A stretch of DNA of 64,000 bases from Candidatus Gottesmanbacteria bacterium (GTDB lineage: Bacteria > Patescibacteriota > Microgenomatia > UBA10105 > UBA927): NCBI GenBank assembly GCA_963714095.1, contig OY970230.1, positions 198,206 through 262,205 on the forward strand, read 5' to 3'. The position numbers were made by a program, and so were the translations under genes. Below are positions 19,941 to 47,680 of this stretch, one piece after another. How positions within the stretch are numbered: position 1 is the stretch's first letter; each line of letters starts with the position of its first letter. The notes beneath the pieces are model-generated. The model was not told where the DNA came from. It searched no databases and saw only the letters and a program-made list of their open reading frames with translations.

Positions 19941-20910
19941 GATGATTTTTATGCCATTTCCAGGCAGATGAAACGATAGTTTCTATATCTGAGTATTTTG
20001 GCCGCCAGCCGAATTCTTTCTTAAAATGTGTGGAGTCTGCAACGAGACTGTGCGGATCACCCGCCCGCCGCGGTGCCTCCCGCACGGCAAAATCTACCCC
20101 GGTCACCTTTTTAACCTCCGCGACAACTTCCTTATTTGTCATCCCATCCCCTGTTGCGAGGTTATATACGTCGGTTTTATGACCATGAGTTAATGCGTCC
20201 AGCGCCAATAAATGCGCCTCCGCAAGGTCCTCAATATGAATGTAGTCCCGCAGACACGACCCGTCGCGCGTCGGATAATCAGTTCCATACAGCAAAAATT
20301 CTTTCTGCTTTCCCATAGCCACACGGATCGCAACCGGAATAATATGTGTTTCAGGGAGATGATCTTCGCCGTTATCACCGCCCAGCGCTGCACCGCATGC
20401 ATTAAAATACCGGAGACTGATACTTCTTATATGATGCTGATAATCCGTCACGCGTAATAGCTCCTCGAAACACCATTTCGACAGCCCGTACGGGCTCGTG
20501 GGATTTTTTGCATGACTCTCCGGTATCGGAATAATTGTCGGATTTCCGTAGACGGCGGCAGTGGAAGAAAAAATAATTGTATCAACCCCATGCTCCTGCA
20601 TCACAGCGAGGAGTGTCATGGGCGCAATAATATTATTTTTCATGTATTTAATAGGATCCCGGACGGATTCTTCCACCATGAGGTATCCGGCAAAATGGAT
20701 GACTGCTTCAATCGAATATTTTGAAAAAATCGGCTCGAGCGTTGCTTTATCTTTAATATTACCCACGATAAGAGGCACCGTGGCCGGTAACGCCTGCCTG
20801 TGGCCGTATTCGAGGGAATCCACGACGATCGGGTGGTAGCCCCGCGCAACAAGCATCCGCACCATATTGCTTCCGATATAGCCGGCGCCTCCGGTAACAA
20901 GCACGTTCAT
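19900..20910 (-). CDS. galE: UDP-glucose 4-epimerase family (GalE)
   Basis: MNVLVTGGAGYIGSNMV, SSTAAVYG and PYGLSKWCFEELL (YxxxK) give a canonical GalE layout. Length 336 aa. Confidence 0.88.
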   Translation of the reverse strand: MNVLVTGGAGYIGSNMVRMLVARGYHPIVVDSLEYGHRQALPATVPLIVGNIKDKATLEPIFSKYSIEAVIHFAGYLMVEESVRDPIKYMKNNIIAPMTLLAVMQEHGVDTIIFSSTAAVYGNPTIIPIPESHAKNPTSPYGLSKWCFEELLRVTDYQHHIRSISLRYFNACGAALGGDNGEDHLPETHIIPVAIRVAMGKQKEFLLYGTDYPTRDGSCLRDYIHIEDLAEAHLLALDALTHGHKTDVYNLATGDGMTNKEVVAEVKKVTGVDFAVREAPRRAGDPHSLVADSTHFKKEFGWRPKYSDIETIVSSAWKWHKNHRDGYSPDPYAKKE

Positions 20911-20914
20911 TCCT

Positions 20915-21136
20915 CTATTTTACTTTATTGGGCCGCAGGAGGGAAATCAGAAGGAAAGAGAGCGTGAACGCAGCACCATACCAAGTCAGACGCTCGGCGG
21001 TAAAAAAAGTCCACGTAGCAAATAACGGAATCGCCAAAACCCAGCTTGCGAGGCCGGCAAACAGAAATAACCGGGGCTTTCTAATTAAAAGTAATACGAC
21101 AAATACCAGAAAAAATCCTATATCCTGCGGCTTCAT
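20915..21136 (-). CDS. small hydrophobic membrane protein (73 aa, 2-3 TM)
   Basis: Almost entirely hydrophobic (FFLVFVVLLLI, LFLFAGLASWVLAIPLFATWTFF, AAFTLSFLLISLL). Tightly packed between the UXS-like gene and galE with a 4-nt overlap. Confidence 0.5.
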   Translation of the reverse strand: MKPQDIGFFLVFVVLLLIRKPRLFLFAGLASWVLAIPLFATWTFFTAERLTWYGAAFTLSFLLISLLRPNKVK

Positions 21137-22077
21137 TGTTTGTAATATGCAATCGTTTTATGTAACCCATCTTCGACGGTCACCTTTGGCGTCCATTGTA
21201 AACGGGTTTTTATCTTTGTTATATCCGGCTTACGCTGGGTCGGATCATCCTCCGGCAATGCTTCAAAAGTAATGGGGGACGCCGATCCTGTCAGCACCTT
21301 AATTTTTTGAGCAAGATCTTTAACCGTGTACTCTTCCGGATTTCCCAGATTAAATACTTCACCTTTGAGGTTGTCGGCGAGCATAACCGCCAGAATTCCG
21401 GATACGAGATCCGAAACGTAACAAAATGACCGGGTCTGTGAACCGCTCCCAAATACCGTCAACGGTTTTTCTTCAAGGGCCTGGTTAATAAAATTTGAAA
21501 CCACACGACCATCATCTTTGCGCATCCTCGGGCCGTAGGTGTTGAATATGCGGATAATACGGGCATCAAGGCCGTATTTCCGAACATAAACCATTGTGAT
21601 TGCCTCTGCAAACCGCTTGGATTCATCGTAACATGCGCGGACTCCGTTAGGATTCACGTTCCCCCAATACAATTCTGTCTGCGGATGCTCCTTTGGATCC
21701 CCGTATACTTCCGATGTGGATGCCTCTAAATATCGTGATGTATGATCCCGCGCAAACTGCAACATATGAATGGTCCCAACTGAGTTGACCAACGCAATTT
21801 CCTCGGAGAGTTTTTTAAAATCCATCGGCGAAGCCGGAGACGCAAGGTTAAAGACGTAATCAATGTGTCCTAGAATATCGGGAGCTGACTCGATAATATC
21901 GTGGCGCAAAAACGAGAAATTTGAGTTTTGTTTCGCCGATTCAATATTTTTTTCAGATCCTGTCAGAAGATTATCTATGCACAATACTTTGTGCCCGAGT
22001 CCCAGTAACGCATCACAAAGGTGCGATCCGATAAATCCTGCCCCGCCGCTAACTACGCTGGTTTTTTGATCTGTCAT
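21133..22077 (-). CDS. UDP-glucuronate decarboxylase (UDP-xylose synthase / ArnA C-domain-like SDR)
   Basis: VVSGGAGFIGSHLCDALL...IDNLLTGSEKNI...STSEVYGDP...YDESKRFAEA matches the UXS family pattern. I chose the start at the ATG at 22077 (MTDQKTSVV); the listed ORF extends to 22116. Confidence 0.82.
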   Translation of the reverse strand: MTDQKTSVVSGGAGFIGSHLCDALLGLGHKVLCIDNLLTGSEKNIESAKQNSNFSFLRHDIIESAPDILGHIDYVFNLASPASPMDFKKLSEEIALVNSVGTIHMLQFARDHTSRYLEASTSEVYGDPKEHPQTELYWGNVNPNGVRACYDESKRFAEAITMVYVRKYGLDARIIRIFNTYGPRMRKDDGRVVSNFINQALEEKPLTVFGSGSQTRSFCYVSDLVSGILAVMLADNLKGEVFNLGNPEEYTVKDLAQKIKVLTGSASPITFEALPEDDPTQRKPDITKIKTRLQWTPKVTVEDGLHKTIAYYKQ

Positions 22078-22081
22078 GCAT

Positions 22082-22792
22082 CTATTGTAGCATACGGATA
22101 CGGATGGCTCCTGCAAGCGACCGCAGGAGTTCTTTCACGTTTGCATTGGAAGCTCCATGTGTTCTGTCCCGGAAACTTATGGGGACTTCCGTTATTCGAA
22201 AACTGTTCTGCTTCAGTTTATATGCTATTTCCGACAGTACGATAAACCCGGTTTCATGAAGGTGCACGCGCACCAAAAATTCCGCTGCTTTTCGGGAGTA
22301 TAATCGGAAACCGTTGGTATAATCCGTTAAGTGCAACCCAAGCCATATGCTTAACAAGGCGTTAATTACTCTGCTTTGAATAAGTCGACGCCACGGCCAT
22401 TTTACAATATGGCTCTGTTTAAGATACCGCGAACCGATAACCAAATCTGCCCCGCGGCGTACGGCTAAAAACCGTCCGAACTCTGCCGGTGAATGCGCTA
22501 GATCTGCATCCATCTCAAAACAATATTGTATTTCCTTATGTTTGAGGGCTTCAGCTAATCCCCGAATGACGGCACTCCCTCTGCCCATTTTGTGCTCGCG
22601 GGAAATAAGAACCACGTTGGGAAAATCCCTTTGAAGCATTCCTGACAGTTGTATTACTTCGTTGGCAGGAGAGTCATCAACAACCACGATCAGAGCATCC
22701 GGGAGGTATTTTTCTATATCTTTTAATAAAATACTTAAATTTTTTTGTTCGTTATACGCCGGAATAATGACTGAAATACCTTGATTATTCAT
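22082..22792 (-). CDS. polyprenyl-phosphate glycosyltransferase, GT2 (DPM1/ArnC-like)
   Basis: ISVIIPAYNEQKNL...VVVDDSP...GRGSAVIRG...FEMDADLAHSP has the DPM1-type MDADLSH-like motif. Length 236 aa, no TM tail. Confidence 0.8.
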   Translation of the reverse strand: MNNQGISVIIPAYNEQKNLSILLKDIEKYLPDALIVVVDDSPANEVIQLSGMLQRDFPNVVLISREHKMGRGSAVIRGLAEALKHKEIQYCFEMDADLAHSPAEFGRFLAVRRGADLVIGSRYLKQSHIVKWPWRRLIQSRVINALLSIWLGLHLTDYTNGFRLYSRKAAEFLVRVHLHETGFIVLSEIAYKLKQNSFRITEVPISFRDRTHGASNANVKELLRSLAGAIRIRMLQ

Positions 22793-22813: not shown

Positions 22814-25096
22814 CTAATTTTTTTCAAATATTGCTATTTGTGCGTTATCGAATATCTTTGTCAGGTGTAACGACGTAATTTCATAATCGGAAATATCAGA
22901 GCCCAGATATCTGGGGATAACAATAAGTTTACTGTCGTAATCTGATATCTTAAGAACGTTATCTTCCGGTCTCATAACCATTTCCCACTTTTTGCCGGTT
23001 ATCGTTTGTCCTATACGGTAGTCAGTATATACAATCGGTTTTACTGCTTTATATATCGGCAGTATCGAATTATCTACCTGCTCTACATACAACACGCTCT
23101 TTTTTTGATTTTTAATAATTTGCAGCGCATGTATTTCATACGTTGTAAGGGCATACTTGCTCCTTGAATAAACAACAGTTACTGCAAGAGACAACAGAAT
23201 GAGGGGAGGGATAATACTGCATAACACTAACATATTCCTCGTTTTGTACTTCCGGAATATAACGATAGCAATCGTAACCAGCACAATTGCAAGAACAGCG
23301 AGGGATGCAAATACAGCCCCGTATGTTGTTTTATCGAGAGGAAAATACGGAACATGCATATACAGAAATACCATCAGCGCATAATAGGCCCAATACAGAT
23401 ATTTCTTTACCTTTCCTGAAGGTCTAACGATGAATACATAATGAAGGACAAACAGGATAAAAAACGGCAGAACTTTACTGACGTACACGGTGGTTAAAAC
23501 GGGAAAAAGATGTAAAGAAAAAAGAATGATAAGTGGTATTGTCTCTTTTTTGTCAAAAAGAAAGGTTACATTTTGTACTAAAAACGGAAACGCAATAAGG
23601 AGCGGAAGGAGTAATAATAAAAACTCATTCACTGATGTCCGGATATTTTTTCTGATGCAACAGATGACGGCGAAATAGAGAATGTAGAGGACACAGAGAA
23701 TCTGAAATGGGCTCATTCCCGGTTTTTCCTGATCAAACGAGAAACTTTTTCCGCCGCGACTCTCAGGGTACACCTGTACTCCCGTCGGAGTAAAATATGC
23801 AACTTTATCGTTTCCTGCATACAGCTCTACATCGTTTCCTTTTTCCTTCGTCGTAAGCTGGTCGCTCGTTTTTCTGATGAAAATACCCTGATCGGGAAAG
23901 GTCATTGAATCAATAATTTCCTGCTCATTTATTCTTAAGGTTGGCTGACTGTTCGGAAGGATATCGAAATCCTCCGGAATCTTATCTGCGTAATTCCTTA
24001 GATCAACGAAAGAAACAACGCCGTTTATTTTCTGCACCGTCGCCCGGTAGTTTTCCGACATATACCAGAATGACTGATTGTTTGAGTCGTAATCCGTTGA
24101 GAGAAAATGGGTTCTGCCTGCAAATACTTTCTTCTGCGCCAAAAACCGCTGGGCGTACTCCTGTGCCGGCACTATATCTACTTTGCCGGATGCCTGTATT
24201 TCCCTGGCTTTGGTGAGCATCGTTTTATACGATTGCTGAAATGTTTCGAGTGTTTCTCCGTTCTCCAGTCCCATCACGAAATTGCCGAATGGTTTCTGCA
24301 AAAAAATCGAGGCAAGGTAGTCGACGTACTCCGGTGTATATCCTCTCGCCGAATAATCCTGCAGACTATACAAAGGATCTGCATACCCTTTAAGGGGATC
24401 CCGTATCGCCCACTGCAGAATTACCACCTTTGTGCTTTCGGCAAACGATGCTGCCGGTATTCCCTCATTCCCTTTTGAAGGAAGATACGGAATATCCCAC
24501 GGAGTCCCCCAAATGGAATACGTATCCAAATTAAATTGGTCTGCCGCCCTCAGAGCTGCGGTGATCCCGTATTTTTCCTGCATATAAGAAAGCGAGTCTC
24601 CGCCGATCCACCAGGCGCCGACTGTCTTGGGATAATATCCGAAAATTTCCTTAAATTTAAAAAAGGCCGCGTCTATCAACTTTCGTCTTTCGCTCTGATC
24701 ATAGGAGCTTAATAATAATCCGTCGGAAAAGTACCATTCCCCCTGTCCCCGAAACTGAACGTTGGATTTCTGGGCATAATTCCTGTCAATCTCAAACAGC
24801 AATCCGAATTCCTGGCCCTTCATTTCCTGTTTGGCAAATTCGGTCATGTCTTTATTCTCCAAAGCTCCATATTGAAACAGCCACGTCGCATAAACACCGA
24901 CCTCACTCGTAACCTGCCACTGAGCTTTCAGGCTGGCAAGCAAATCATCAGACGCGTGTCCGAGTCCGTTCCCCCGGACAAGATTGATGACGGTAATTGC
25001 GGGACGTGAGGCACTATCCTGAGCTTCGGAATGACACGGGAAGCAGAAAAAGAAAACAATGATTAAAAAAGTAAACAGAACAATTCTTTTTATCAC
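22814..25096 (-). CDS. large membrane protein: signal/anchor, ~440-aa ectodomain, ~8 TM block, C-terminal domain; function unknown
   Basis: N-terminus IVLFTFLIIVFFFCFPCHSEA. The ectodomain has YPKTVGAWWIGGDSLSYMQEKYGI (faintly polysaccharide-deacetylase/NodB-like, unverified). Hydrophobic cluster at about residues 465-640. Confidence 0.5.
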   Translation of the reverse strand: MIKRIVLFTFLIIVFFFCFPCHSEAQDSASRPAITVINLVRGNGLGHASDDLLASLKAQWQVTSEVGVYATWLFQYGALENKDMTEFAKQEMKGQEFGLLFEIDRNYAQKSNVQFRGQGEWYFSDGLLLSSYDQSERRKLIDAAFFKFKEIFGYYPKTVGAWWIGGDSLSYMQEKYGITAALRAADQFNLDTYSIWGTPWDIPYLPSKGNEGIPAASFAESTKVVILQWAIRDPLKGYADPLYSLQDYSARGYTPEYVDYLASIFLQKPFGNFVMGLENGETLETFQQSYKTMLTKAREIQASGKVDIVPAQEYAQRFLAQKKVFAGRTHFLSTDYDSNNQSFWYMSENYRATVQKINGVVSFVDLRNYADKIPEDFDILPNSQPTLRINEQEIIDSMTFPDQGIFIRKTSDQLTTKEKGNDVELYAGNDKVAYFTPTGVQVYPESRGGKSFSFDQEKPGMSPFQILCVLYILYFAVICCIRKNIRTSVNEFLLLLLPLLIAFPFLVQNVTFLFDKKETIPLIILFSLHLFPVLTTVYVSKVLPFFILFVLHYVFIVRPSGKVKKYLYWAYYALMVFLYMHVPYFPLDKTTYGAVFASLAVLAIVLVTIAIVIFRKYKTRNMLVLCSIIPPLILLSLAVTVVYSRSKYALTTYEIHALQIIKNQKKSVLYVEQVDNSILPIYKAVKPIVYTDYRIGQTITGKKWEMVMRPEDNVLKISDYDSKLIVIPRYLGSDISDYEITSLHLTKIFDNAQIAIFEKN

Positions 25097-25120: not shown

Positions 25121-26980
25121 TTATTTCGCATCTATACGAAGTATCAGGTATTTCGTGTCTTCATAGACTGTTTCGTATGTTGCGGTAAGCAATTTTTCGT
25201 CAACGGCATACGGAAAATCGTTTTTCTTCCATCTCGGAATAAGGATATATGAGATATTACTTGCTTTGGCAGCCGAGATATCACCCTGGTACACCCTAGA
25301 AACAACAGGCGACCGGTCTACCCAGCCGACATTCCCGTAAAAACCGAAATAATTGGTCCTCCCTGCTAAAACTACCGGGTCTATGATGTCCGAATATGAC
25401 ACAAAAATCGCGTCTCGTTGTGTGTTTTTTTTAATCCAGGAAATAACCGCGGCTGTATCCTTATCTACCAGCGGATACGCGAACTCATTCTTTACGACCA
25501 TAAGGTCGATAGCACCTGATACCGTAAGGGTAAATAAAAGAGCGAGTGCAAGCAGTCTAAATCCGACTCTTTTCCGCCGCAAAAGCCAAACAATTCCGCA
25601 TGCGGCACTGATATTGACACCGATGATGAGAACTGACAGAAATTTCTGGTCAAATCCATGCTTCCCGTACGCCGCATACAGGCATAGAGCAGCAAAAAAC
25701 AGAAAGAACGGAGCGATGACACCTCTTCGTTGTTTAGGAATTACGAAAAAACCCGCAACTGCAACGAACGGCAATATGCCGAGATTTTCCCACAAATACT
25801 GAAAAATGTTCCATTGCGGTAACCGGCCCGTTCCCTGTAATGATAACCCCAGTGACCATACGCTTTTCCATACGGAAACAAACGGCAAAACTGACATCAC
25901 AACCGTTCCTAGTGCGCACACGGAAAACGTAACCGACTCACGCCATCGTCTCCTCAAAAGCATAAGAAGAACAATGATTGCTCCGACAAGTGCACTGACA
26001 GGTATGTTCCAAAAAAACATACCGCCGGTTAATACACCCAATACGGCGCCGTTGAAATTCGTTAACCGTTTATCATCGGACAGCTTGAGGAGACACATAA
26101 TCAGGAAAAGCCCGAGCGCAATACTAAAAGCCAGATGCCGCTGATTCACATAATTATTGAGCGTCATAAAAACGGAAATAACGGATCCGTCATACGGTCC
26201 GGCAAACGGGTACGCGGGAAGTCTCCAGGTGGTATGAAAAAATGCAAAGTTAAAACCTTTTTGGGGTATGAAATACCAAAACGTCAGCGTACTGTGCGTA
26301 ATTGTCAACAATACCGCAACCCATCCGGCGAGTTTCGTTTGTTTCAGAAATACTTGCGGCAAAAAATAAACAATTATGAGAAGTGACGCAAATGAAACTA
26401 TGCTGGGAATATTCATAGCCCATACGATCGGAACACCGAAATATTCCCAGAGAGCGACGAAAAAATAGAAAAGGAAATGATAAAAAAATGGCAGTCCAGA
26501 CTGAAACGGAGACATAAACGGAATATTATTTCCCCATGAAAATGACCGCACGATCCCGAGTGAATGCCCGAAATCAAACACGTTATTACTTCCGACAAAT
26601 AATGTTCCGCCTGTTCCTGCACGAAACGTTTTCATCATCAGCCACGAACTGAAAAGAACTGAAAAAAGGACGATAAGTACGTCACCAAATGTCAGGACAG
26701 ACGTTGAATTCGATTTTTTTATTTTCACAAAACGGCTTAAGATGAATACTACTGCGATAAAGAGAACCGTGCTCCAAAGAATCGATTCTCCGGTTTGCCT
26801 CAGTAAACTTGCCAATATATAGGTTGTCGGTACTCCGATACCGATGCCGACTATCATGGAACCGACAAACGCAAGCAATACAGGCATTCCGGAAAACCAT
26901 TTTTTTACGACGATCGAACCCAAAAACGTTAATGAAATAATGTAGAGAGCAAGAATGAGCAAATGGATACCCTGTTGCAT
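25121..26980 (-). CDS. polytopic membrane protein, GT-C-like (unassigned family)
   Basis: About 14 hydrophobic segments followed by a ~130-aa soluble C-terminal domain (ArnT/PMT-like overall layout). No family motif confidently recognised. Confidence 0.5.
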   Translation of the reverse strand: MQQGIHLLILALYIISLTFLGSIVVKKWFSGMPVLLAFVGSMIVGIGIGVPTTYILASLLRQTGESILWSTVLFIAVVFILSRFVKIKKSNSTSVLTFGDVLIVLFSVLFSSWLMMKTFRAGTGGTLFVGSNNVFDFGHSLGIVRSFSWGNNIPFMSPFQSGLPFFYHFLFYFFVALWEYFGVPIVWAMNIPSIVSFASLLIIVYFLPQVFLKQTKLAGWVAVLLTITHSTLTFWYFIPQKGFNFAFFHTTWRLPAYPFAGPYDGSVISVFMTLNNYVNQRHLAFSIALGLFLIMCLLKLSDDKRLTNFNGAVLGVLTGGMFFWNIPVSALVGAIIVLLMLLRRRWRESVTFSVCALGTVVMSVLPFVSVWKSVWSLGLSLQGTGRLPQWNIFQYLWENLGILPFVAVAGFFVIPKQRRGVIAPFFLFFAALCLYAAYGKHGFDQKFLSVLIIGVNISAACGIVWLLRRKRVGFRLLALALLFTLTVSGAIDLMVVKNEFAYPLVDKDTAAVISWIKKNTQRDAIFVSYSDIIDPVVLAGRTNYFGFYGNVGWVDRSPVVSRVYQGDISAAKASNISYILIPRWKKNDFPYAVDEKLLTATYETVYEDTKYLILRIDAK

Positions 26981-26983
26981 ATG

Positions 26984-28672
26984 TTATTTCCGGCGTTTCA
27001 GTATAAGTATTACTGCTGAACTGACGAGCGTAATACTACTGATTCCGACACCTATATTTGCCAGTATTTGTTGTCTGGCGACGATCGGAGGAATTGTACT
27101 AATCATAGTAAACTGAGTATTTTTAAAAACCGCTACACCGGTAAAATCAGTGTCCTCAATAAGTGTCGTATTTTTAAGAGCATCTATTAGGAGGCTGCGT
27201 TCGTCGGGATTAAAACGGTAATCCGTAAGGAAAAACTGCTTCGTGAGATCAGTCGGCACGATCACATATCCGACTCCTGAATCTGCCAGACTCTTCATAA
27301 ATTCAGGCGTTTTAATCATGGCGATAACGGCAGATATTGAAGCGCCATTAAACAGTTCATTGGATGTCAGCAATGGGTGAACCTCTGACGTATATGCAAA
27401 CGGGTCGTTTTGAGGTATCCATAACGTGCGCGATGGTTTTGCATCCCCGACCAGTACATCTTTCAGGCGGACGTAATCGGCGGAAATTCGCGGTGGCAGG
27501 AAATTGCCCCGCATTTGGCCTAAAAAAACCGGCCGGATGGTAAAACACCAATACAACAGAAAGATGGTCCATATAAGTATTTCATTTATATGAATTTTTT
27601 CCGTGAGCCGCTGAAGTGTATACGGGATTAAAACGGAATATCCAAGAGCAGTAAAAACATATACTTTCGTGGGATCGCGGAACATGACAAATCCGGGTAT
27701 ATGGATAAACATCCACTGAAAAATTTCTCCGAACGGATCATTGACGCCTTTTGCAAGAAACACACCCAGAAGCGCGAGCACACCGAAAAAAAATATTTTT
27801 CTTGACCGATCCGCGGCTTTTTTTTCAACGAACAAAAACGCGCAAAATGCCAGGAGAGGCAAAATGAGAAATTCCGGCTGCAGGAAATAGACTTTTCCGA
27901 ATAAATTTTCCGGCCAATTCGGATGAAGAAGTGAAAGCGCATGGGAAAAATCCGCAGAGCTTAAAAATTTGAGCATGCCGGGACTCGTAAATTGATCTCC
28001 GAGTGATTGTATCCCACCTCCGCCAAACACCGTCGGCAAAATCCAAAAAGCGTGCGAACAAAGTCCGATGATGCCGGGGACAATAAACGTCGAAATAATT
28101 ATCGTGCCGATATATTTACTTCCGTACAGATACCAATGGAGAAAAAAATATAAACCTATAGCGATAACTGCAAGATATGCCAATCGTATATCGAGTACTA
28201 TTAACAACGCAAAATATAAACCGTTTCCAATAGACGTTCGTATATTCTGTTGTACGGGGGTATCAATACCCTCCGTAAACTTCAGAAACACCAAGGGCAG
28301 AAATGCAAATGCCCAGGCAACACCCAACTGACCTCCGCTGAAAAGAAGGAGAAAATATGTATTTGTGGTATAAATTACGGAACCCAACACGGCAAACAAG
28401 GGTCTATTAACACATCTTCTGACCAGCCGATATGATGAATACACTGCCAGAACAAAAGCGATGATCCAAAATAGTTTGTCTATGAAAAACCATGAAAATC
28501 CGAGCAGTGATAGTATTTTCAACACGAAACGGTACGGATATTCAAGCCACAAACGGGGCAACAGACTTTGCCCGAAACCTTTTGTCGTATCCCAAACGGG
28601 CGGCAACCATGAAAACTGCCGGATTTGTTCTTCAAACAAAAACGGCGCATCACCGGAAGCAAAAAATATCAT
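26984..28672 (-). CDS. polytopic membrane protein with C-terminal ectodomain and terminal TM anchor (AftD/YfhO-like layout)
   Basis: I moved the start to the ATG at 28672, which forms an ATGA overlap with the stop of 28669..31629. N-terminal loop SWLPPVWDTTKGFGQS. It ends in a hydrophobic anchor, GVGISSITLVSSAVILILKRRK. Confidence 0.5.
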   Translation of the reverse strand: MIFFASGDAPFLFEEQIRQFSWLPPVWDTTKGFGQSLLPRLWLEYPYRFVLKILSLLGFSWFFIDKLFWIIAFVLAVYSSYRLVRRCVNRPLFAVLGSVIYTTNTYFLLLFSGGQLGVAWAFAFLPLVFLKFTEGIDTPVQQNIRTSIGNGLYFALLIVLDIRLAYLAVIAIGLYFFLHWYLYGSKYIGTIIISTFIVPGIIGLCSHAFWILPTVFGGGGIQSLGDQFTSPGMLKFLSSADFSHALSLLHPNWPENLFGKVYFLQPEFLILPLLAFCAFLFVEKKAADRSRKIFFFGVLALLGVFLAKGVNDPFGEIFQWMFIHIPGFVMFRDPTKVYVFTALGYSVLIPYTLQRLTEKIHINEILIWTIFLLYWCFTIRPVFLGQMRGNFLPPRISADYVRLKDVLVGDAKPSRTLWIPQNDPFAYTSEVHPLLTSNELFNGASISAVIAMIKTPEFMKSLADSGVGYVIVPTDLTKQFFLTDYRFNPDERSLLIDALKNTTLIEDTDFTGVAVFKNTQFTMISTIPPIVARQQILANIGVGISSITLVSSAVILILKRRK

Positions 28673-31629
28673 ACGCGATGAATCCTTTGTTGATCTTTTC
28701 GCACTGTCAGAATAATAGCAACGCAAACGAAACCCGCAATGGTTATCACGGCCCCGATATAAAATATGCTCTGCGGTTGATAATAGATGGTTGCATCATA
28801 TGTTCCCTTTGTATCTATAATCCAACCGTTGGCAAAACCGTTTGTCAGGACATGCCGGCTTTCCTGTAAGGTCTCCCCGTTGATTTTTATCTTCCACCGC
28901 GCGTCGAAGCCGGCGTTGTAGAGTAACAAAAATGCTTTTTGGGCATTATTGATGTGCACTGTGACATTTGTAGGATTCTTTTGAATAAATGTAACAGCCG
29001 GCGAAGAGATGTTTATGGATTCATGATTCCGGTGGGCATAAACGGCGGGTTGCTGCCTGGGAACATTATCGGCCGCAGCAGTAAGTTCAACTGTGTGAAA
29101 GCCTGCGGTCAAATAGACATTTTTTGGATTGGTAACTAATGATCCGTCTAATTTGAGAGTCTGGGAGGAGACATCATAAACGAGCAGCTGGTAATTGGCA
29201 TCAGTATCCACGGTCAACCCATACCGGTATTCCTGTTGTCCGTCTCCCATCCAAACCAAAGGTTGTACGCGGACAATCATTGTCTGGAAATACGACTCAA
29301 ATTCCGGATCCTTCCCTAATTCTCTTTGCTGGGCCAGAAAATAAGCCAAAATACGGTTTGCATAGACCGTTTTATCGCGTCCGGAAAGATTGTCCATAAT
29401 CTTCACAGCATCGTTCATCGCCAATTCGTACCGCGCTTGTGCCGATTGTAACCGGGCAATATTATTTTCCGTGCGGAATTCCATATACTCTCCCAGTCTG
29501 GTCTGTGCGTGGGCAATAAGTACGTCGATCTTTGCAGAGCCGGTCTTCGCGTTATTATTTTCACGCTCTTCTTTCCATGTTATGTATGGATATGCCACGG
29601 AACCGGGGAGTATGCGCGGCCGGAGTATCGTGATTCCTGATACATATTTATTCCATTCTGCCGTTTTGCAAAAATAACATTCACCACCGTACACAATAGA
29701 TGTAGCCAGGGAAGTAGCCGGACCCGCTCCCGTTCCATCCCCGATTTCGACGACCGGCACCGCAGGTTCAACTCCTACGATATCCGAACCGCTCGCGGAT
29801 AAATCCCCCTGAAAATCTGTCACCGCACCTGCGGCTTGGACAATCGGAGGTGCGGATCCCGGCAAATCCCATAACTGCCACTCCCCTTTGTCAAACGTTT
29901 TCGTTAAACCGAAAGCGGTAGCAATAGGCACAAAATCAGGGGCAGGTTGAGGCTTGGAAAACTGAACATCGCGCCGGACCAAAATAGAACGGACTCGAAG
30001 TATGGATGCCAGATTGAAAAATGAACGCCTATCATGACTATCCAGTGCCTCATACATACGGTTCACCAGCTCGCCACCTGTACCGGTGGCGTCATTGGCA
30101 ATAATCGGAACGGTCGAGATTAATCTCGGAAGCACGTCGAGACTGTAAAACCCCCACCGATACGTATCAATCGGCTGATTAATAAACCCCGCGTCAAGCG
30201 GCGGATAGATGAGGATATTCCCTGAATACGGGTCTGCGCTATTCATAACTTTTGCCGTGTCTGTTACATAAGGCGGAACCGAGACGCGCGTGGTAAAATC
30301 TTTGGAGAATTGAAATATGTCCGATACAAAAAACGGATAGTGATACACGAATAAACCCGTAATGAAACCCGCGGCAATAAGAGCCTGCACCAGTCTTCCT
30401 TTTATGGATTGCAGAACGGAGTTCAGCATAAAACCGGAAAGAATAATCATCGGAATCCACACTAACGGCGCAAATTTATAAAAGCTTGAACGGAAAATTG
30501 CAAATCCCGGCACGTGACGCATCGCCCAAATAAATGCCACACCGAACGGGGGATGCGATCCAGCGGCCAGTACCAACCCTATGAGCAAAAGTATGTAGAG
30601 ACATACAAGGAACCAGATCTGACGGATATTTTTTCTTTTCCATAACAGGAATATTGAACCGACAAAAACGATAATTGCAGGAATAAAACTTGCAATAATC
30701 AAAAGATGGTTGGTAAGAAATTGATGCGCAAACGGATTATAGACATTGTCATACCAATCGGGGATTCCCTGTAAACGCAGAAGATTTATAATGCTCGCAT
30801 TTTTGCTGATCACACCTTCCCATGCAATGAGCCCCTCAATTCCCCCATAAGCTCCTACCGTCTGACTGTATGTTCCGAGATATAGACTGAGCTGCGGTAA
30901 AACCCAATAGGCATTGACAGTCAAAAACGAAACGGACATGCCGCACGCGATGAAACATAACCGCTTCAGCACCCCCCGTCCGTCTTTGCGGATTGCAATG
31001 ATAGAAAAAATAATAAATGAACATACCAGCCCGACAAGCGTTGCCCCATACAACGGCGGAGACCCTCCCCCGTTCAGAATAAAATAGAGAAGCCCGAAGG
31101 CAATTGCATGCCTGACAATATTCTTCTTACGGATAATTGTCCGGTACAGAAGAGCAACTGCTATAGGGAGCGCGGCAAACAGTGAAAATTCTGCCCGCTC
31201 CGCAATAAACCACCCCTGTAAAATATAAAAATTGTACATCGCAAATGCCGATGACCACAGACGTAAAAATCTGTATTGCTTCTGCGGAAATACGAGATAT
31301 ATACCTAGCCACATGCCGAAACCGATAAGAAAAAACCACAATACGAGAGCGATTCGTTGACCCCAAAGGATCGATCCTGTAAGTACTGAAAATAGCGTTT
31401 CCGGAAACTGCGTCACAAGAAATGCCTTGTATAACGCCCAATCTATCCCGAAGTTCACAATCGGATTCCACGAATAAAACAAATTTTTTAGATTTACCAC
31501 TGGCATCAGCCGGAATCCACTATCATGCCCGAGAAGCATCTGACTACCACTCAACCAATGAAGAGGTAAAAGAGATGTAATGAATATAAACAGGAGTTCA
31601 ATAAAATATGCACGTCGAATATATTTCAT
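28669..31629 (-). CDS. very large polytopic membrane protein with ~450-aa C-terminal ectodomain and terminal TM anchor (AftD/DUF3367-like layout)
   Basis: 986 aa. N-terminal loop LLGHDSGFRLMPVVNLKNLFYSWNPIVNFG, then more than 12 TM segments, then a beta-rich ectodomain ending ...HVLTNGFANGWIIDTKGTYDATIYYQP followed by IGAVITIAGFVCVAIIL. Confidence 0.5.
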   Translation of the reverse strand: MKYIRRAYFIELLFIFITSLLPLHWLSGSQMLLGHDSGFRLMPVVNLKNLFYSWNPIVNFGIDWALYKAFLVTQFPETLFSVLTGSILWGQRIALVLWFFLIGFGMWLGIYLVFPQKQYRFLRLWSSAFAMYNFYILQGWFIAERAEFSLFAALPIAVALLYRTIIRKKNIVRHAIAFGLLYFILNGGGSPPLYGATLVGLVCSFIIFSIIAIRKDGRGVLKRLCFIACGMSVSFLTVNAYWVLPQLSLYLGTYSQTVGAYGGIEGLIAWEGVISKNASIINLLRLQGIPDWYDNVYNPFAHQFLTNHLLIIASFIPAIIVFVGSIFLLWKRKNIRQIWFLVCLYILLLIGLVLAAGSHPPFGVAFIWAMRHVPGFAIFRSSFYKFAPLVWIPMIILSGFMLNSVLQSIKGRLVQALIAAGFITGLFVYHYPFFVSDIFQFSKDFTTRVSVPPYVTDTAKVMNSADPYSGNILIYPPLDAGFINQPIDTYRWGFYSLDVLPRLISTVPIIANDATGTGGELVNRMYEALDSHDRRSFFNLASILRVRSILVRRDVQFSKPQPAPDFVPIATAFGLTKTFDKGEWQLWDLPGSAPPIVQAAGAVTDFQGDLSASGSDIVGVEPAVPVVEIGDGTGAGPATSLATSIVYGGECYFCKTAEWNKYVSGITILRPRILPGSVAYPYITWKEERENNNAKTGSAKIDVLIAHAQTRLGEYMEFRTENNIARLQSAQARYELAMNDAVKIMDNLSGRDKTVYANRILAYFLAQQRELGKDPEFESYFQTMIVRVQPLVWMGDGQQEYRYGLTVDTDANYQLLVYDVSSQTLKLDGSLVTNPKNVYLTAGFHTVELTAAADNVPRQQPAVYAHRNHESINISSPAVTFIQKNPTNVTVHINNAQKAFLLLYNAGFDARWKIKINGETLQESRHVLTNGFANGWIIDTKGTYDATIYYQPQSIFYIGAVITIAGFVCVAIILTVRKDQQRIHRV

Positions 31630-33266
31630 ATCTTTTCTCGTTTCTTAAAAATTTCAATAGTTGATCCATCGATGGGAACGAAAACGTCACGAAAACGATC
31701 GTATCCCAACGATTCTATCACTGTGGCATTAACGCCCCCAGGTACTTTATCCAACACATAATCGGCCTGATGTAACTCCAACTTTTTGGGCAATACGGCA
31801 TCTTTCGGCACTTCTGTGTCCATAACCATTATATCTCGCTGCTCGTACGTCAGAATGGACAGGAACGCATTATCAAGCGGCTCAAAGGCAAACAGCTTAA
31901 CAACGTCTGGCTTTCCGGGCCCTTTCCAATCATTACGAATTGTTGACACCATCACATCCGCATTAACAAATTCTTTATTCGGCGGCCACACTATGGGCGT
32001 CAGATATATACGGCGCGGATGATGAATAAATTCCGGGAGAACAATATCCTTTAAACCCTGTTTCCCCATCGGACCAATTGCCCAAAACGCACCGAAATAA
32101 CTGCAAACGGCAACCACCACGAAACAAACCGTGAAAAATCTTCTGACCGCCGAATGTTGGATGCCCGCAAGGGGTAATACGGCCAAAAAAGCCATATAGG
32201 GATACAAAGGCACGATGAACCGGTCTTCCTTCCACACCGCCATACCAGTAAAAAACAGATACGGCACCGCGACACCCAGAAGGGGCACCCCATATCGTTT
32301 CCATTTCCATAGTGCAATAAGCACACCGACCGCAAACGGAATAAAAATCCAAACCGTATTCTGGGACATAATGTTGAAATAATACATGACGGATCTTGTT
32401 GATAACGTATTTGCCATATCGGGGCTGCGGTATTGTGCCACCCACTCTGCTCCGTACGTCTGGTTGTTCTTAACGTATACGTCAAAAAAAATGTGGGCGT
32501 TGGGAATGTAATATGCAAAAATCGGTACAACTACTCCGATAATCAAAAATAAGACAATGTTAACGATAATGTTCTTTCTGACTTTCTTTTCCCTCACAGC
32601 CTGCCCGACAGACATAATAAATACCGCCAGCGCCGGCCCCAACACAAATACCGGTCCAACCCAACGCGTCAGTGATGCCAGTGCCAGAAAAACTGCCGCA
32701 ACGAGAGTTTCTTTTGTTTTTACGAAACTATTTGTTTTGAGAAGAAATACGACCGACCATATACAGAACGTGCTCACCGCTGTTTCCGTATATGTAAAAT
32801 GTGAATAAAACAATACGTTTCCTAAACTTGCAAATACTATTGCGACAAGAAGTGATTTTTTTTGAGTAAAATACGTTCTGGCTATTACATACGTCCCGAT
32901 AATCGCCGCAAGGTAAAAAAGTCCGTTCAGAAGCAATGCCATCTTGTACGTATACGCTGTTCCGAAAATCAGTAATAATAGTGCTATAACAATACTGAAT
33001 ACCGGCTGCCGGTATCCGCTCGCCGCAAGAATACTCCCCCACGAAACTGACAATGGATGACGGAATTGATCATACAAATTCACTGCCAGAGAAAGATATT
33101 GATGTTCGTCCCATTGGGGATATTGATGAGATCTATAGATATAAAAAGCAAATGAAAGATAAACAAAAACAAGAAGACTTATACTTATCAGACTAAAAAG
33201 TTTATGGTGCGATTGAAGCTGACCCTTGTTGTTTTTTTGTAGCTCTCTTTCATAAAATAACCTCAT
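31626..33266 (-). CDS. GT-C fold glycosyltransferase, PMT_2/ArnT-like
   Basis: First-loop motif YPQWDEHQYLSLAVNLYDQF, more than 11 TM segments and a soluble C-terminal ~130 aa. I chose the start at the ATG at 33266 (MRLFYERELQ) because the listed start 33356 leaves only 25 nt to the divergent gene. Confidence 0.68.
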   Translation of the reverse strand: MRLFYERELQKNNKGQLQSHHKLFSLISISLLVFVYLSFAFYIYRSHQYPQWDEHQYLSLAVNLYDQFRHPLSVSWGSILAASGYRQPVFSIVIALLLLIFGTAYTYKMALLLNGLFYLAAIIGTYVIARTYFTQKKSLLVAIVFASLGNVLFYSHFTYTETAVSTFCIWSVVFLLKTNSFVKTKETLVAAVFLALASLTRWVGPVFVLGPALAVFIMSVGQAVREKKVRKNIIVNIVLFLIIGVVVPIFAYYIPNAHIFFDVYVKNNQTYGAEWVAQYRSPDMANTLSTRSVMYYFNIMSQNTVWIFIPFAVGVLIALWKWKRYGVPLLGVAVPYLFFTGMAVWKEDRFIVPLYPYMAFLAVLPLAGIQHSAVRRFFTVCFVVVAVCSYFGAFWAIGPMGKQGLKDIVLPEFIHHPRRIYLTPIVWPPNKEFVNADVMVSTIRNDWKGPGKPDVVKLFAFEPLDNAFLSILTYEQRDIMVMDTEVPKDAVLPKKLELHQADYVLDKVPGGVNATVIESLGYDRFRDVFVPIDGSTIEIFKKREKI

Positions 33267-33381
33267 ATTGTTTCGTTGGTTCGTATGCAATACTATGTAC
33301 CTATTATATCCTGACTTTACCGAAAATCTTGATAATAAATAATAACACAGTTGCAAAAATTTAACTAAACCGCAAAGCCTT
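33267..33381. promoter_or_regulatory. probable divergent promoter region
   Basis: First strand switch in the locus. It lies between the likely start of the minus-strand GT-C gene and the plus-strand acyltransferase gene. No consensus boxes confidently identified. Confidence 0.25.
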
Positions 33382-34593
33382 ATGAACCGACAACCCTCTC
33401 CCCATTATGCATTTTTAGACGGCCTCAAAGGAATTGCTATTGTCATGATTGTCGCGTTTCACCTACAATTTATATATTCAGGATTTTCCGATTATTTAAG
33501 CAAGCTCCTAGCGTTTAGCGGTGTATGGGTAAATATGTTTTTCGTAATTTCCGCGTTTACCCTCACGGCGAGCGTCTATAATCAGCGTTTATTTAATTTT
33601 TTCCGGTATTTCTATAAACGTTTTCTTCGGATAACACCAGCATATTACGTAATGCTTGTTATTGCGTTTATCGTTATGCCAACTATGGTCAGAACATTTC
33701 TGTGGGGAAATAATATCCAGAATCTATTTCAACACATTCTCTTCATTAACACAGCCCCGTTTAATCATACCAATCAAGTTTCAATTCTGGGAGTGGAATG
33801 GTATATACCGGTACAATTTTGGCTCTATCTTGTCATACCATTTATCGTAATCACCCTTAGGGGAAATGGTATTATATTTTCGGCGCTTTTATTGGTATCG
33901 TTGTTTCTTCATTCAGATAAAAACGCACTCTTCCATTATCAGAATTTTTTTGATTTCGCCTCAAGTATACAGAACTTTCTCTGGGTCTATGTATTTGCTA
34001 TCGGTGCTCAAATGGTGCGTATGAATAAAAAAATTCATCTGTCGTTCTCATCCATTATCACAGGACTGGGAATTCTGGCAGGCTCTGTTTATTTTATTCT
34101 CACTATCCAAACTAAAAGTGAACGGTTCTATATAACTGCATTGATCGTCATGTTATATCAGATCCTCTTGAAAACACGCATTATCCGCCGCGTATCAACA
34201 ACCCATTCCTCGTTGGTACCGATACTCGAACATATTGACGTTCTTATATTATTTATTTTGTTTTATAAATATATCCTGAATTGGTACTTTGTAAAAAACC
34301 CTCATGAATTTATGGCATTCTGGTCAATTGCGCTGGTTATTGCGTCATATGCCCGCCCATGGTTCCTCCAGAAGTTATTGGAAAATCGTGCTGTTGTACT
34401 GCTGGGGAAATATAGTTATGAGATCTATCTCACGCATTTTTTCGTTATTACGGCGGTAGGTTATATTATTCCAAAACAAGGGCCATACATCCGCACGCTC
34501 TACATTCTTCCCATCATCGCCATTCTCTCGTATCTTTTACGCCAATTTGTTTCCAAACCTGCGCTGGATTTATATCCACTCAAAAATCAATAA
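33382..34593 (+). CDS. acyltransferase family 3 membrane protein (OafA/WecH-like O-acyltransferase)
   Basis: FLDGLKGIAIVMIVAFHL opening (conserved His), about 10 TM segments, C-terminal LGKYSYEIYLTHFFV motif. Confidence 0.85.
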   Translation: MNRQPSPHYAFLDGLKGIAIVMIVAFHLQFIYSGFSDYLSKLLAFSGVWVNMFFVISAFTLTASVYNQRLFNFFRYFYKRFLRITPAYYVMLVIAFIVMPTMVRTFLWGNNIQNLFQHILFINTAPFNHTNQVSILGVEWYIPVQFWLYLVIPFIVITLRGNGIIFSALLLVSLFLHSDKNALFHYQNFFDFASSIQNFLWVYVFAIGAQMVRMNKKIHLSFSSIITGLGILAGSVYFILTIQTKSERFYITALIVMLYQILLKTRIIRRVSTTHSSLVPILEHIDVLILFILFYKYILNWYFVKNPHEFMAFWSIALVIASYARPWFLQKLLENRAVVLLGKYSYEIYLTHFFVITAVGYIIPKQGPYIRTLYILPIIAILSYLLRQFVSKPALDLYPLKNQ

Positions 34594-46979: not shown

Positions 46980-47680
46980 ATTTTTTGCATACAGCAATAA
47001 ATATTGGTAAACCCCCGTTCCTTTTGATATTCCTCGTCCAATTTTCGCTCAAAAAATCGGGCGAAAAATGGGGATCTGCGGAAAATCCATTTTGATATAT
47101 AAAGATTTAAAATCCAGGCTGTTTCCCACCATGCACCGGCACATTGGATTTTAACAATCTTCATGCCTGACCCCCGGACATACGCGATAATCGAACCTAC
47201 CGTATAATGCCTGTGGCCAGTTAACCAAAACGCCGGATCCAATAACGTGCTAATAATAAACCGGTGCGGCGTAGAAATATAACACGCACCACCCCGTTTC
47301 AGTACGCGGGAAATCTCCCGAAACATTATATATTCCGTTCCTTTTGGAATGTGCTCGAGAACTTCCCACGATACGACTGTATCAAACGAACGTTTTGGAA
47401 AAGGTATTACTGTGGCGCTGCCGACGATAAAATGAATTTTTTTGTCATAAATAGACCGCTTCGCCGTACGAAAATCTTCCTCAGTCAACTCAGTTCCCAC
47501 GATAGATCGGACGTTATTTTTTTTCGCAAATACCTCAAACCACCCATACCCGCAGCCGATATCGAGAACTTTTTTATATGTTATATCACCGATCCGTACA
47601 AAAGAAGCCGTAAAACGCAGACGTTCATGAAGCGGAGCATATGGCGATACCTTGGTGATATTTTTCATACAGGGCGACAA
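46976..47680 (-). CDS. class I SAM-dependent methyltransferase
   Basis: Motif I VLDIGCGYGWFE, followed by FDTVVSWEVLEHI and LKRGGACYIST. Confidence 0.85.
   Translation of the reverse strand: MSPCMKNITKVSPYAPLHERLRFTASFVRIGDITYKKVLDIGCGYGWFEVFAKKNNVRSIVGTELTEEDFRTAKRSIYDKKIHFIVGSATVIPFPKRSFDTVVSWEVLEHIPKGTEYIMFREISRVLKRGGACYISTPHRFIISTLLDPAFWLTGHRHYTVGSIIAYVRGSGMKIVKIQCAGAWWETAWILNLYISKWIFRRSPFFARFFERKLDEEYQKERGFTNIYCCMQKI

Follow-up and report, generated by a model that had tools for sequence, protein, structure and literature searches.

Introduction

In Mycobacteriales, a conserved envelope locus encodes both the GT-C glycosyltransferase AftD and its short paralogue MmpA (PMC8698533; bioRxiv 10.64898/2026.07.31.741767). 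AftD has an ectodomain with three CBMs, a second transmembrane (TM) domain (TM12-16) and the ability to bind ACP (bioRxiv 10.1101/2019.12.22.885152). MmpA (Rv0226c/NCgl2761) is a short paralogue of the AftD TM core with an extracytoplasmic domain before a single last TM; the study describing it reported no homology outside corynebacteria and mycobacteria (PMC8698533).

The locus described here, from a Patescibacterium, encodes a comparable pair. AftD (PF11847; PDB 6W98/6WBY) is the closest structure to the protein that we call p986: in each, a GT-C core of the 11-TM type bearing a first-loop Asp is joined to a periplasmic alpha/beta domain and then to one or more beta-sandwich domains, and the chain goes back into the membrane after the ectodomain. 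However, p986 has one beta-sandwich and a DUF5667-like four-helix bundle in place of the three CBMs, and a single terminal TM in 986 residues where AftD, with about 1400, has TM12-16. The neighbouring p562 resembles MmpA: it is a short paralogue of the TM core, its gene shares a locus with that of the longer protein, and its extracytoplasmic domain comes ahead of the last TM. It lacks, however, the N-terminal TM/signal helix of MmpA, whose phenotype concerns trehalose mycolates, compounds not expected in this host. We know of no arabinogalactan in Patescibacteria, and donor and acceptor are therefore unlikely to be those of AftD.

The locus also appears to follow the logic of the systems GtrA/GtrB/GtrC, CsbB/GtcA/YfhO, ArnC/ArnEF/ArnT, PpgS/Rv3779 and PgfS/PgfM1, in which a small GT2 charges polyprenyl phosphate and a GT-C transfers the sugar outside the membrane. 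Whereas these systems have one GT-C partner per synthase, the operon has three to five polytopic partners.

Results

A row of GT-C genes with conserved partners

The initial annotation of the 64-kb stretch analysed here (the window) proposed that four consecutive large membrane proteins share one layout of TM core, ectodomain and terminal anchor. The row itself is real (Table 1). Its four minus-strand ORFs are joined by ATGA start/stop overlaps (p546/p986 and p986/p562) or separated by 3 nt (p562/p619), all four products are polytopic by hydropathy, and no gene for a soluble transferase lies between them. The common layout holds as far as the GT-C type, found in all four; a terminal anchor is present only in p986 and p562. 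The four proteins are three different GT-C families and one paralogue pair, not one repeated architecture. Beyond them, the row goes on with p760 and then a GT2 gene.

Table 1. Features of the operon and of p522 (positions in the window).
Feature	Position	Strand	Remarks
p546	31626..33266	-	546 aa from ATG; 576 aa from upstream TTG; maximal ORF reaches TTG at 33356
p546 D53-E54	33105..33110	-	acidic pair behind TM1; invariant 3/3
p986	28669..31629	-	986 aa; AftD-like GT-C
p986 Asp36	31522..31524	-	first-loop motif G-H-D-S-G-x-R; invariant in 38/38 sequences
p986 C-terminal anchor	28675..28779	-	residues 951-985; basic cytoplasmic tail
p562	26984..28672	-	562 aa from ATG; 580 from TTG; shortened p986 paralogue
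p562 D8	28649..28651	-	first-loop Asp; retained in 36/37 family members
p562 TM anchor	26993..27067	-	C-terminal
p619	25121..26980	-	619 aa; GT-C, family without Pfam model
p619 Asp136	26573..26575	-	conserved loop Asp; >= 90% in family
p760	22814..25096	-	760 aa; fifth membrane protein in the row
GT2	22082..22792	-	236 aa; polyprenyl-phosphate sugar synthase-like (DPM1/ArnC/PpgS/AglJ/PgfS type)
UXS-like SDR	21133..22077	-	314 aa; UDP-glucuronate decarboxylase (UXS/ArnA-C)-like; conserved triad partner
tm73	20915..21136	-	73 aa, two TM; always accompanies module
GalE-type UDP-sugar 4-epimerase	19900..20910	-	conserved triad partner
p522	62073..63641	-	PTPS_related/YfhO-type GT-C; 29 kb off, outside operon

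A GT-C core was recognized in p986 and p619 by structure searches, in p562 by homology to p986, and in p546 by a near-threshold PMT_2 match together with a WDE motif. No GT-C of the PDB was reached by the sequence profiles built for the p986, p619 and p546 families; the assignments therefore depend on predicted structures and on low-scoring Pfam/NCBIfam matches. Each protein has the conserved first-loop acidic residue that had been expected (D36 in p986, D8 in p562, D136 in p619, D53-E54 in p546), conserved acidic and basic loop residues are present in every family, and, by the positive-inside rule, both the conserved loops and the ectodomains face outward.

Comparison with other Microgenomates showed that the block 986-562-619-UXS-like-tm73-GalE-like is kept in 10 class-1 loci, from 10 species of different lineages, and a variant made of 986-like, 562-like, GT2 and tm73 genes was found in about 11 further loci. 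The 986-like/562-like pairing recurs in about 20 species. The presence of p546 and p760 varies between species.

The AftD-like protein p986

The AlphaFold2 model of p986 (pLDDT 89.7, pTM 0.85) comprises a TM core (residues 1-440), an alpha/beta ectodomain (about 445-650), the four-helix bundle (680-791), the beta-sandwich (800-950) and a terminal TM helix (951-985). In a Foldseek search of the PDB, AftD was the top match (6wby/6w98, E 1.7e-10, TMq 0.53), followed by STT3, PglB and AftA, and the TM core can be superposed on solved GT-C enzymes. The likeness to AftD and YfhO proposed earlier thus stands on the AftD side, for p986 and by paralogy for p562; YfhO resembles only the distant p522. 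At the sequence level, Pfam GT-C_AftD (PF11847) is matched weakly by 14 of the 38 p986-family members (best E 7.6e-11); p986 itself does not match PF11847 at E <= 0.1, and it has no HMMER-level match to the AftD chains, with which it shares about 10% identity. Asp36 is a candidate catalytic or donor-binding residue by analogy with AftD, in which K39/D41 are essential (bioRxiv 10.1101/2019.12.22.885152).

The C-terminal hydrophobic stretches quoted in the initial annotation for p986, p562 and p522 are present in the sequences. In p986, this stretch is modelled as a 35-residue helix (block pLDDT 82-97), and not as a buried beta-strand, with loop charges consistent with an out-to-in orientation; a terminal hydrophobic 19-mer with a K/R tail occurs in 37/38 family members. 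The beta-rich region described ahead of the last anchor is a beta-sandwich in p986, whereas the region ahead of the anchor in p562 has its counterpart in the p986 domain of mixed alpha/beta type.

p562, a paralogue without TM1

p562 and p986 form the sole detectably homologous pair among the four proteins (BLASTP E 1e-8). Their family profiles align over about 450 columns (hhalign probability 99.1%, E 7.6e-19; residues 8-478 on 36-557), and this homology includes the first-loop Asp, p562 Asp8 corresponding to p986 Asp36. The PGFxMFR motif is retained, and invariant loop residues of the family include P251-N252-x-P254 and PGFxMFRDP. A small ectodomain precedes the TM anchor, and all 37 family members end with the hydrophobic 19-mer and K/R tail.

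The N-terminus sets this family apart. In all 37 members it lies 6-12 residues before the Asp, or only a non-hydrophobic extension is found there; since the proteins start just ahead of the first-loop Asp (by about 7 residues), TM helix 1 of the GT-C fold is missing. In p986, p546 and p619, by contrast, a TM1 precedes the first loop (N-in topology). The ATG of p562 overlaps the TGA of p986, and 19 codons ahead of this ATG the reading frame is closed by a stop. Without TM1, the first loop would need translocation of the N-tail. Both paralogues match the NCBIfam model of MmpA (NF053599; p562: E 1.9e-9, 36.7 bits; p986: E 9e-6, 24.5 bits), with scores far below its curated cut-off of 210 bits.

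p562 may be non-catalytic. A bolder model is that its family represents functional GT-Cs without TM1, with a catalytic first loop that starts right at the N-terminus and is exported as an N-tail, and with a fold completed by their own anchor or by p986 in trans, and that p986 and p562 form an obligate heteromeric machine, an ancient counterpart of AftD/MmpA in a phylum distant from Actinobacteria. We regard this model as rather doubtful.

p619 and p546

p619 has about 16 TM helices, of which about three are extra N-terminal helices ahead of the canonical first loop, an LNxYVNQRH motif and a small C-terminal alpha/beta ectodomain similar to the globular one of AglB-S2, an archaeal OST. No Pfam family is matched by p619, its profile has no significant match to that of p986, it lacks a WWDYG motif, and none of the 36 family members has a terminal anchor. 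Structure searches nevertheless retrieved AftA, ALG12, STT3, PglB, DPY19, AftD and ArnT, with DPY19, STT3 and PglB as the best Foldseek matches. No sequence-level relationship links p619 to the GT-Cs with a C-terminal ectodomain, namely STT3/PglB/AglB, DPY19, AftA and ALG12.

p546 falls just under the gathering threshold of Pfam PMT_2 (PF13231; E 2e-5, 25.2-25.3 bits against 26.1), with an alignment covering positions 4-156 of the 160 in the model, and PMT_2 is matched by 3/3 family members (best E 8.5e-6). An invariant PQWDEH motif, with WDE at its centre (3/3 members), directly follows TM1, and PMT_2/ArnT-type GT-Cs likewise have an acidic D-E pair straight after TM1. The protein ends in a soluble domain of about 130 residues without known family, and has no terminal anchor. 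Its gene lies upstream of the 986 gene in some loci (L003/L007 and L005).

Downstream genes of the operon

p760 combines a signal peptide, a DUF3863-like ectodomain of about 440 residues, about seven TM helices and a C-terminal domain; its family profile matches PDB 3lm3 (DUF3863; E 3e-5). A natural fusion protein, P0351, joins a p619-like part (49% identity) to a p760-like part (70%), and through this fusion p760 is predicted to be functionally linked to p619. Ectodomains of the p760 type are also found joined to a flippase of the Wzx type and to a GT-C of the PMT_2 family.

The operon GT2 matches Pfam Glycos_transf_2 (E 8e-21). Its best NCBIfam matches are AglJ, PpgS, ArnC and PgfS, all far below the equivalog cut-offs, and it presumably makes the lipid-linked donor. 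Two more GT2s of this kind are encoded in the window. Among the NCBIfam matches of the 314-aa SDR are UDP-4-keto-pentose/UDP-xylose synthase and the C-terminal domain of ArnA, and the GalE-like protein scores well above the cut-off of TIGR01179 galE (398.8 bits against 262.3). The conservation of these two partners suggests a lipid-linked pentose donor, possibly a neutral one, as opposed to the Ara4N, Glc or GlcNAc of the three-component systems. For AftD, whose donor is decaprenyl-P-arabinofuranose (DPA) and whose acceptor is arabinan, no genes of the DPA pathway were noticed in the window. Unlike those systems, the operon has no recognisable flippase of the GtrA/GtcA/ArnEF type, and none of the Wzx type was identified in it either; only the two-TM tm73 is present. 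The latter adjoins UXS/GalE or GT2 genes in about 20 loci, and its only Pfam match is insignificant (Lycopene_cyc, E 0.013).

Discussion

We conclude that the row is probably an operon of polyprenyl-phosphate-sugar GT-Cs that builds or decorates a cell-surface glycopolymer at the outer face of the membrane. The extracytoplasmic assembly line envisaged at first is retained in its GT-C fold, donor logic and gene linkage, and loses its single repeated architecture. A DPM1/ArnC/PpgS-like GT2 is encoded in the same operon. Synteny of the 986-562-619 triad extends over about 10 species. As the window encodes at least nine GT-C-like proteins, co-location alone is weak evidence.

A plausible pathway would start with a UDP-sugar supplied by the UXS-like decarboxylase and the GalE-like epimerase, from which the GT2 would make the lipid-linked donor in the cytoplasm; the sugar could be a pentose, for example xylose or L-arabinose. 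Once flipped, the lipid-linked sugar would be used by the GT-Cs. The functional core would be the triad of p986 (AftD-like), p562 (MmpA-like, without TM1) and p619, with p546 and p760 as lineage-variable add-ons. p562 appears to be translationally coupled to p986 and probably acts with it as a complex. The order in which the GT-Cs act, and the acceptor, are at present a matter of inference.

Alternatively, the GT-Cs could be independent decorators that share only the lipid-linked donor, each attaching a side-branch or modification to a different acceptor produced elsewhere in this 64-kb glycan island, without any ordered assembly line. Known systems that pair a GT2 with a GT-C (Gtr, YfhO/CsbB, Arn and PpgS/Rv3779) are decorators. 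Besides the numerous GT-C-like proteins, the window encodes a flippase of the Wzx type, a 997-aa protein resembling Wzy_C, three DPM1-like GT2s and many cytoplasmic GT1/GT2/GT4 transferases. The gain and loss of p546 and p760 between species point in the same direction. However, the strict 986-562-619 order seen in 10 species, where the genes overlap or nearly touch, and the recurrent 986-like/562-like pairing argue for a co-functioning unit, and we hold independent decoration to be somewhat doubtful.

The operon could also glycosylate proteins (S-layer proteins, pilins or lipoproteins) instead of assembling a polysaccharide, with p619 in the role of an oligosaccharyl- or C/O-mannosyl-transferase and p546 in that of an O-glycosyltransferase of the PMT/ArnT type. 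The best structural matches of p619, its AglB-S2-like C-terminal domain, the PMT_2 match of p546 and the fact that AglJ, the best NCBIfam match of the GT2, belongs to S-layer N-glycosylation are all consistent with this reading, which we nevertheless consider unlikely.

To our knowledge, Patescibacteria have no mycolate or trehalose lipids, which speaks against a third possibility, namely that p562, perhaps with p986, is primarily a membrane scaffold or regulator that links the export of lipids or glycolipids to the assembly of the wall. The matches of both proteins to MmpA, itself an AftD-like core with an ectodomain ahead of the last TM and unproven catalysis (PMC8698533), the non-enzymatic partner role of AftD with TmaT and the loss of TM1, which could signal loss of catalysis, would fit such a role, but the MmpA scores lie far under the cut-off of the model and the near-universal first-loop Asp and many invariant loop residues of the p562 family suggest a maintained active site, making it quite unlikely.

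Patescibacteria are, as far as we know, uncultured organisms with minimal genomes, and their envelope chemistry is hardly known. This conserved and well-delimited module, in which an AftD-like GT-C and its MmpA-like paralogue stand together with a new GT-C family, a putative lipid-sugar synthase and putative pentose-nucleotide enzymes, offers a concrete starting point for work on their surface glycan. The locus indicates that AftD/MmpA-type pairs occur outside Mycobacteriales and may help to elucidate the role of MmpA, while p619 adds a GT-C family still without a Pfam model. If active, the paralogue without TM1 would relax the accepted minimal architecture of GT-C enzymes.

p522 and the late motif

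A late motif had been thought common to p986, p562 and p522. It is not statistically shared, and p562 has neither form. NGFANGW (p986 residues 930-936) and YFPGW (p522 residues 455-459) do not occupy the same place in the terminal beta-sandwich; where a YFPGW-type motif would stand, p986 reads FDARW and homologues read F-x-P-G-W. The C-terminal profile of p986 gave no score on p522, and neither the four operon proteins nor the C-terminal fragments of the p986 family matched PF09586 or PF10131. p522, which also ends in a beta-sandwich, the one carrying YFPGW, and an anchor, exceeds the cut-off of Pfam PTPS_related (30.3 bits against 26.4) and matches the C-terminal region of YfhO (E 9e-6) and the C-terminus of PgfM1 (E 4e-5).

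Gene row and fold assignments

Almost every gene of the window lies on the minus strand, and the stretch from 33.3 kb to 22.1 kb forms an unbroken row of five large membrane proteins, named here by their length in amino acids, and a GT2 glycosyltransferase (Table). The start and stop codons overlap as ATGA at the p546/p986 and p986/p562 junctions, while the remaining gaps measure 3 nt (p562/p619), 24 nt (p619/p760) and 21 nt (p760/GT2). All five large proteins are polytopic by hydropathy, and close homologues carry labels such as Microgenomates, Patescibacteria and Gottesmanbacteria. The initial annotation described four giant proteins of one common layout (N-terminal TM bundle, ectodomain, C-terminal anchor) and a late motif in the 562-, 986- and 522-aa proteins. 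The gene row and the terminal anchors are real, and the row extends further than described, to a fifth membrane protein (p760) and the GT2 that ends it. The common architecture and shared motif were overstated: BLASTP and hhalign connect p986 with p562 only, which rules out a single architecture for all four.

Phmmer searches with these four proteins against PDB sequences gave no match, and those with the profiles of the p986, p619 and p546 families yielded chance matches alone, none of them to a membrane glycosyltransferase of the GT-C fold; structure prediction was therefore needed for fold assignment. The p986 family comprises 264 detected members, mostly of 880–1160 aa and none with a functional name, with an invariant G-H-D-S-G-x-R directly after the first helix (TM1) and P-G-F-x-x-F-R further on. 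The AlphaFold2 model of p986, built with 38 sequences, is confident (pLDDT 89.7, pTM 0.85). In Foldseek against the PDB, mycobacterial AftD ranks first (6wby, E 1.7e-10, TMq 0.53), ahead of STT3, PglB and AftA. Pfam GT-C_AftD is matched by 14 of 38 homologues, although not by p986 itself. Loop charges are consistent with an N-in, ectodomain-out, C-in topology. Published AftD has 16 TM helices, including TM12-16, and three CBMs (bioRxiv 10.1101/2019.12.22.885152), whereas p986 has one sandwich, one helical bundle and one return helix; on the predicted structure, p986 is thus best described as a reduced relative of AftD. A YfhO-type C-terminal module common to p986 and p522, a separate membrane protein 29 kb from the operon, was ruled out: no YfhO match emerged when ten C-terminal fragments from the p986 family were scanned with Pfam, and the C-terminal profile scored -0.9 bits against p522, the resemblance being at motif level only.

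None of the 110 homologues of p619 carries a Pfam domain or a name. Searches of PDB sequences with p619 and with its family profile found no match, and the hhalign comparison with the p986 family was not significant. Its AlphaFold2 model, of very high confidence (pLDDT 91.5, pTM 0.92), is clearly that of a GT-C, and Foldseek retrieves DPY19 (1.6e-7), STT3, PglB, AftB, AftD and EmbA. About three additional helices precede its canonical first loop, which bears the conserved Asp136; further invariant loop residues include LNxYVNQRH, and there is no terminal anchor. p546 matches PMT_2 across almost the entire model, 0.8-0.9 bits below the Pfam threshold. All three available family members match PMT_2, and P-Q-W-D-E-H is invariant right behind TM1 in the family. 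It is probably a PMT_2/ArnT-type GT-C; of the four proteins, it has the least certain assignment.

A GT-C paralogue without its first helix

Profile–profile alignment equates residues 8-478 of p562 with 36-557 of p986 (probability 99.1%, E 7.6e-19), taking in Asp8/Asp36 and PGFxxFR and reaching into the first ectodomain. p562 ends with a hydrophobic anchor and a KRRK tail, and such an anchor is found in all 37 p562-family and 37 of 38 p986-family members. Both proteins weakly match the NCBIfam model of MmpA, a short AftD paralogue of Corynebacterineae with its ectodomain ahead of the last TM (PMC8698533; bioRxiv 10.64898/2026.07.31.741767).

Judged from the sequences, TM1 of the GT-C fold is missing from the p562 family, because all 37 aligned members start with M-x-(W/F)-(Y/F)-F-x-x-G-D, 6-12 residues ahead of the Asp, or with a short non-hydrophobic extension. 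A TM1 hidden behind an upstream start is ruled out, as the reading frame in the window adds 18 non-hydrophobic residues before an in-frame stop 19 codons upstream. A -1 frameshift fusion of p986 and p562 as the source of TM1 was rejected on topology, since the first loop would then be cytoplasmic. The basic loop RLVRRCVNR after the first hydrophobic segment of p562 has its counterpart in a cytoplasmic loop of p986; the N-terminal loop of about 60 residues should therefore lie outside the cell, which would require N-tail export. Among the longer (640-680 aa) 562-like paralogues of class-2 loci (see below), TM1 is kept in some, where it precedes (A/G)HDW or GGDW, and lost in others; its loss is thus a real evolutionary state and no gene-calling artefact. 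The contrast is seen between loci L016, L018, L030, L017, L021 and L029 and loci L020, L022, L024, L027 and L015.

The operon end

The ectodomain of p760 is related to DUF3863/PDB 3lm3 (E 3e-5) and occurs widely; in other genomes it is fused to a Wzx-type flippase, a PMT_2 GT-C or a p619 homologue (P0351, 1316 aa). The last fusion links p760 functionally to p619, and p760 may serve to modify or process glycans. The best matches of the 236-aa GT2 are AglJ, PpgS, ArnC, PgfS and Dol-P-hexose transferase, polyprenyl-phosphate sugar synthases, all under equivalog cut-offs. Beyond it lie a UXS/ArnA-C-like decarboxylase, a 73-aa two-TM protein (tm73) and a GalE-family epimerase. In related loci, tm73 either directly follows the GT2 or is flanked by the UXS-like and GalE-like genes. 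Its comparison with known families gave nothing recognisable (Lycopene_cyc at E 0.013 only), and no family support was found for a flippase; a role as flippase subunit or as partner of the GT2 is conceivable.

Conservation among Microgenomates loci

We mapped the families with local HMMs in 26 loci from species-representative genomes, all of Microgenomates lineages. Ten species (class 1) share the block 986-562-619-UXS-tm73-GalE. Most of these loci have a class-I methyltransferase directly before the gene for the 986-type protein, and p546 is sometimes found upstream too; the window has no methyltransferase at this position, its nearest similar gene lying at 46976..47680. About eleven species (class 2) have a 1100-1150-aa 986-like protein, a small PYFN protein, a 640-680-aa 562-like protein, a GT2 of about 310 aa and tm73, and lack p619. 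The PYFN protein (111-177 aa, 3-4 TM, conserved P-Y-F-N-(I/L)) always lies between the 986-like and 562-like genes; the window has no such gene. The 986/562 pair, a lipid-sugar synthase and tm73 thus make up the conserved unit, to which class 1 adds p619 and two nucleotide-pentose-type enzymes.

p760 and the divergent Acyl_transf_3 gene adjoining the operon are lineage-specific. The latter arrangement recalls the AftD-TmaT pairing of mycobacteria. We rejected the parallel with the tmaT locus, as the gene is present in none of the 26 related loci and thus is not part of the module; its product is probably a lineage-specific glycan O-acyltransferase.

Public MAG records with this Microgenomates-type locus are in many cases titled 'uncultured Gammaproteobacteria bacterium' (L005, L009, L011, L012, L014-L016, L018, L021, L028, L030), which looks like a placeholder or mislabel, judged by gene content and nearest relatives.

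Possible function of the row

An extracytoplasmic GT-C assembly line had been proposed for the row. Our data support this reading in part: they speak for extracytoplasmic GT-C enzymes supplied by an operon-encoded polyprenyl-P-sugar synthase. The same logic governs the Gtr, YfhO/CsbB, Arn and PpgS/Rv3779 systems, although here several GT-Cs accompany one synthase. We infer that the donor sugar may be a pentose and that the enzymes may work in sequence. A complex of p986 and p562 is suggested by their translational coupling, by their almost universal adjacency and by the AftD/MmpA precedent. That the GT-Cs are instead independent decorators is possible but doubtful. Protein glycosylation as their role appears unlikely. 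Still less probable is a scaffold or regulator role for p562, which lacks TM1 and retains the Asp and PGFxxFR. Most of these results are solid, unsurprising annotation of divergent GT-C enzymes. What makes the locus moderately interesting is chiefly the TM1-less GT-C paralogue, together with the Pfam-less p619 family and an AftD-like/MmpA-like pair that is conserved outside Actinobacteria. Our search of the searchable literature library found no papers connecting Patescibacteria with GT-C enzymes.

The wider glycan island

The entire window is one glycan island: besides numerous GT1/GT2/GT4 transferases, aminotransferases and SDR enzymes, it encodes four PMT_2-like proteins, three DPM1-like GT2s, a Wzx-type flippase and p522, which is of PTPS_related/YfhO type. 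Its 64 kb carry nine or more GT-C-like membrane proteins, among them PMT_2-like proteins at 10791, 44994, 58873 and 31626, p986, p562, p619 and p522. Two polytopic proteins of 537 and 557 aa, for which neither Pfam nor NCBIfam offers a match at E <= 1, may be further unclassified GT-C or polymerase-like proteins. Locus L004 contains a 1078-aa equivalent of the 997-aa Wzy_C-like protein.

Features of the window, of the p986 model and of related loci
Feature	Position	Strand	Remarks
p546	31626..33266	-	576 aa with upstream TTG start
p986	28669..31629	-
p562	26984..28672	-
p619	25121..26980	-
p760	22814..25096	-
236-aa GT2	22082..22792	-	small GT2; best matches AglJ, ArnC, PgfS, PpgS (polyprenyl-phosphate sugar synthases)
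Two further small GT2s	56824..57615, 60353..61039	-	same best matches
tm73, 73 aa	20915..21136	-	two TM; conserved in about 20 related loci
p522	62073..63641	-
Acyl_transf_3 membrane acyltransferase	33382..34593	+	divergent, adjoins operon
537-aa polytopic protein	18327..19940	-	~10 or more TM helices (hydropathy)
557-aa polytopic protein	40021..41694	-	~10 or more TM helices (hydropathy)
997-aa very hydrophobic protein	12240..15233	-	weak Wzy_C (O-antigen ligase/polymerase) match, E 4.5e-5
664-aa DUF4012 protein	2946..4940	-	DUF4012 E 3e-22, N-terminal TM segment; island edge
p986 model, TM core	to ~residue 440
p986 model, alpha/beta domain			after TM core, before four-helix bundle
p986 model, four-helix bundle	residues 680-791		weak DUF5667 match
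p986 model, beta-sandwich	residues 800-950
p986 model, terminal helix	residues 951-985		35 residues
PYFN protein, class-2 loci	L016 13246..13581; L018 13401..13745; L030 4653..4988		also in others
Class-I methyltransferase, ~220 aa	L002 9323..9985; L003 9329..9997		also L009, L010, L013, L012
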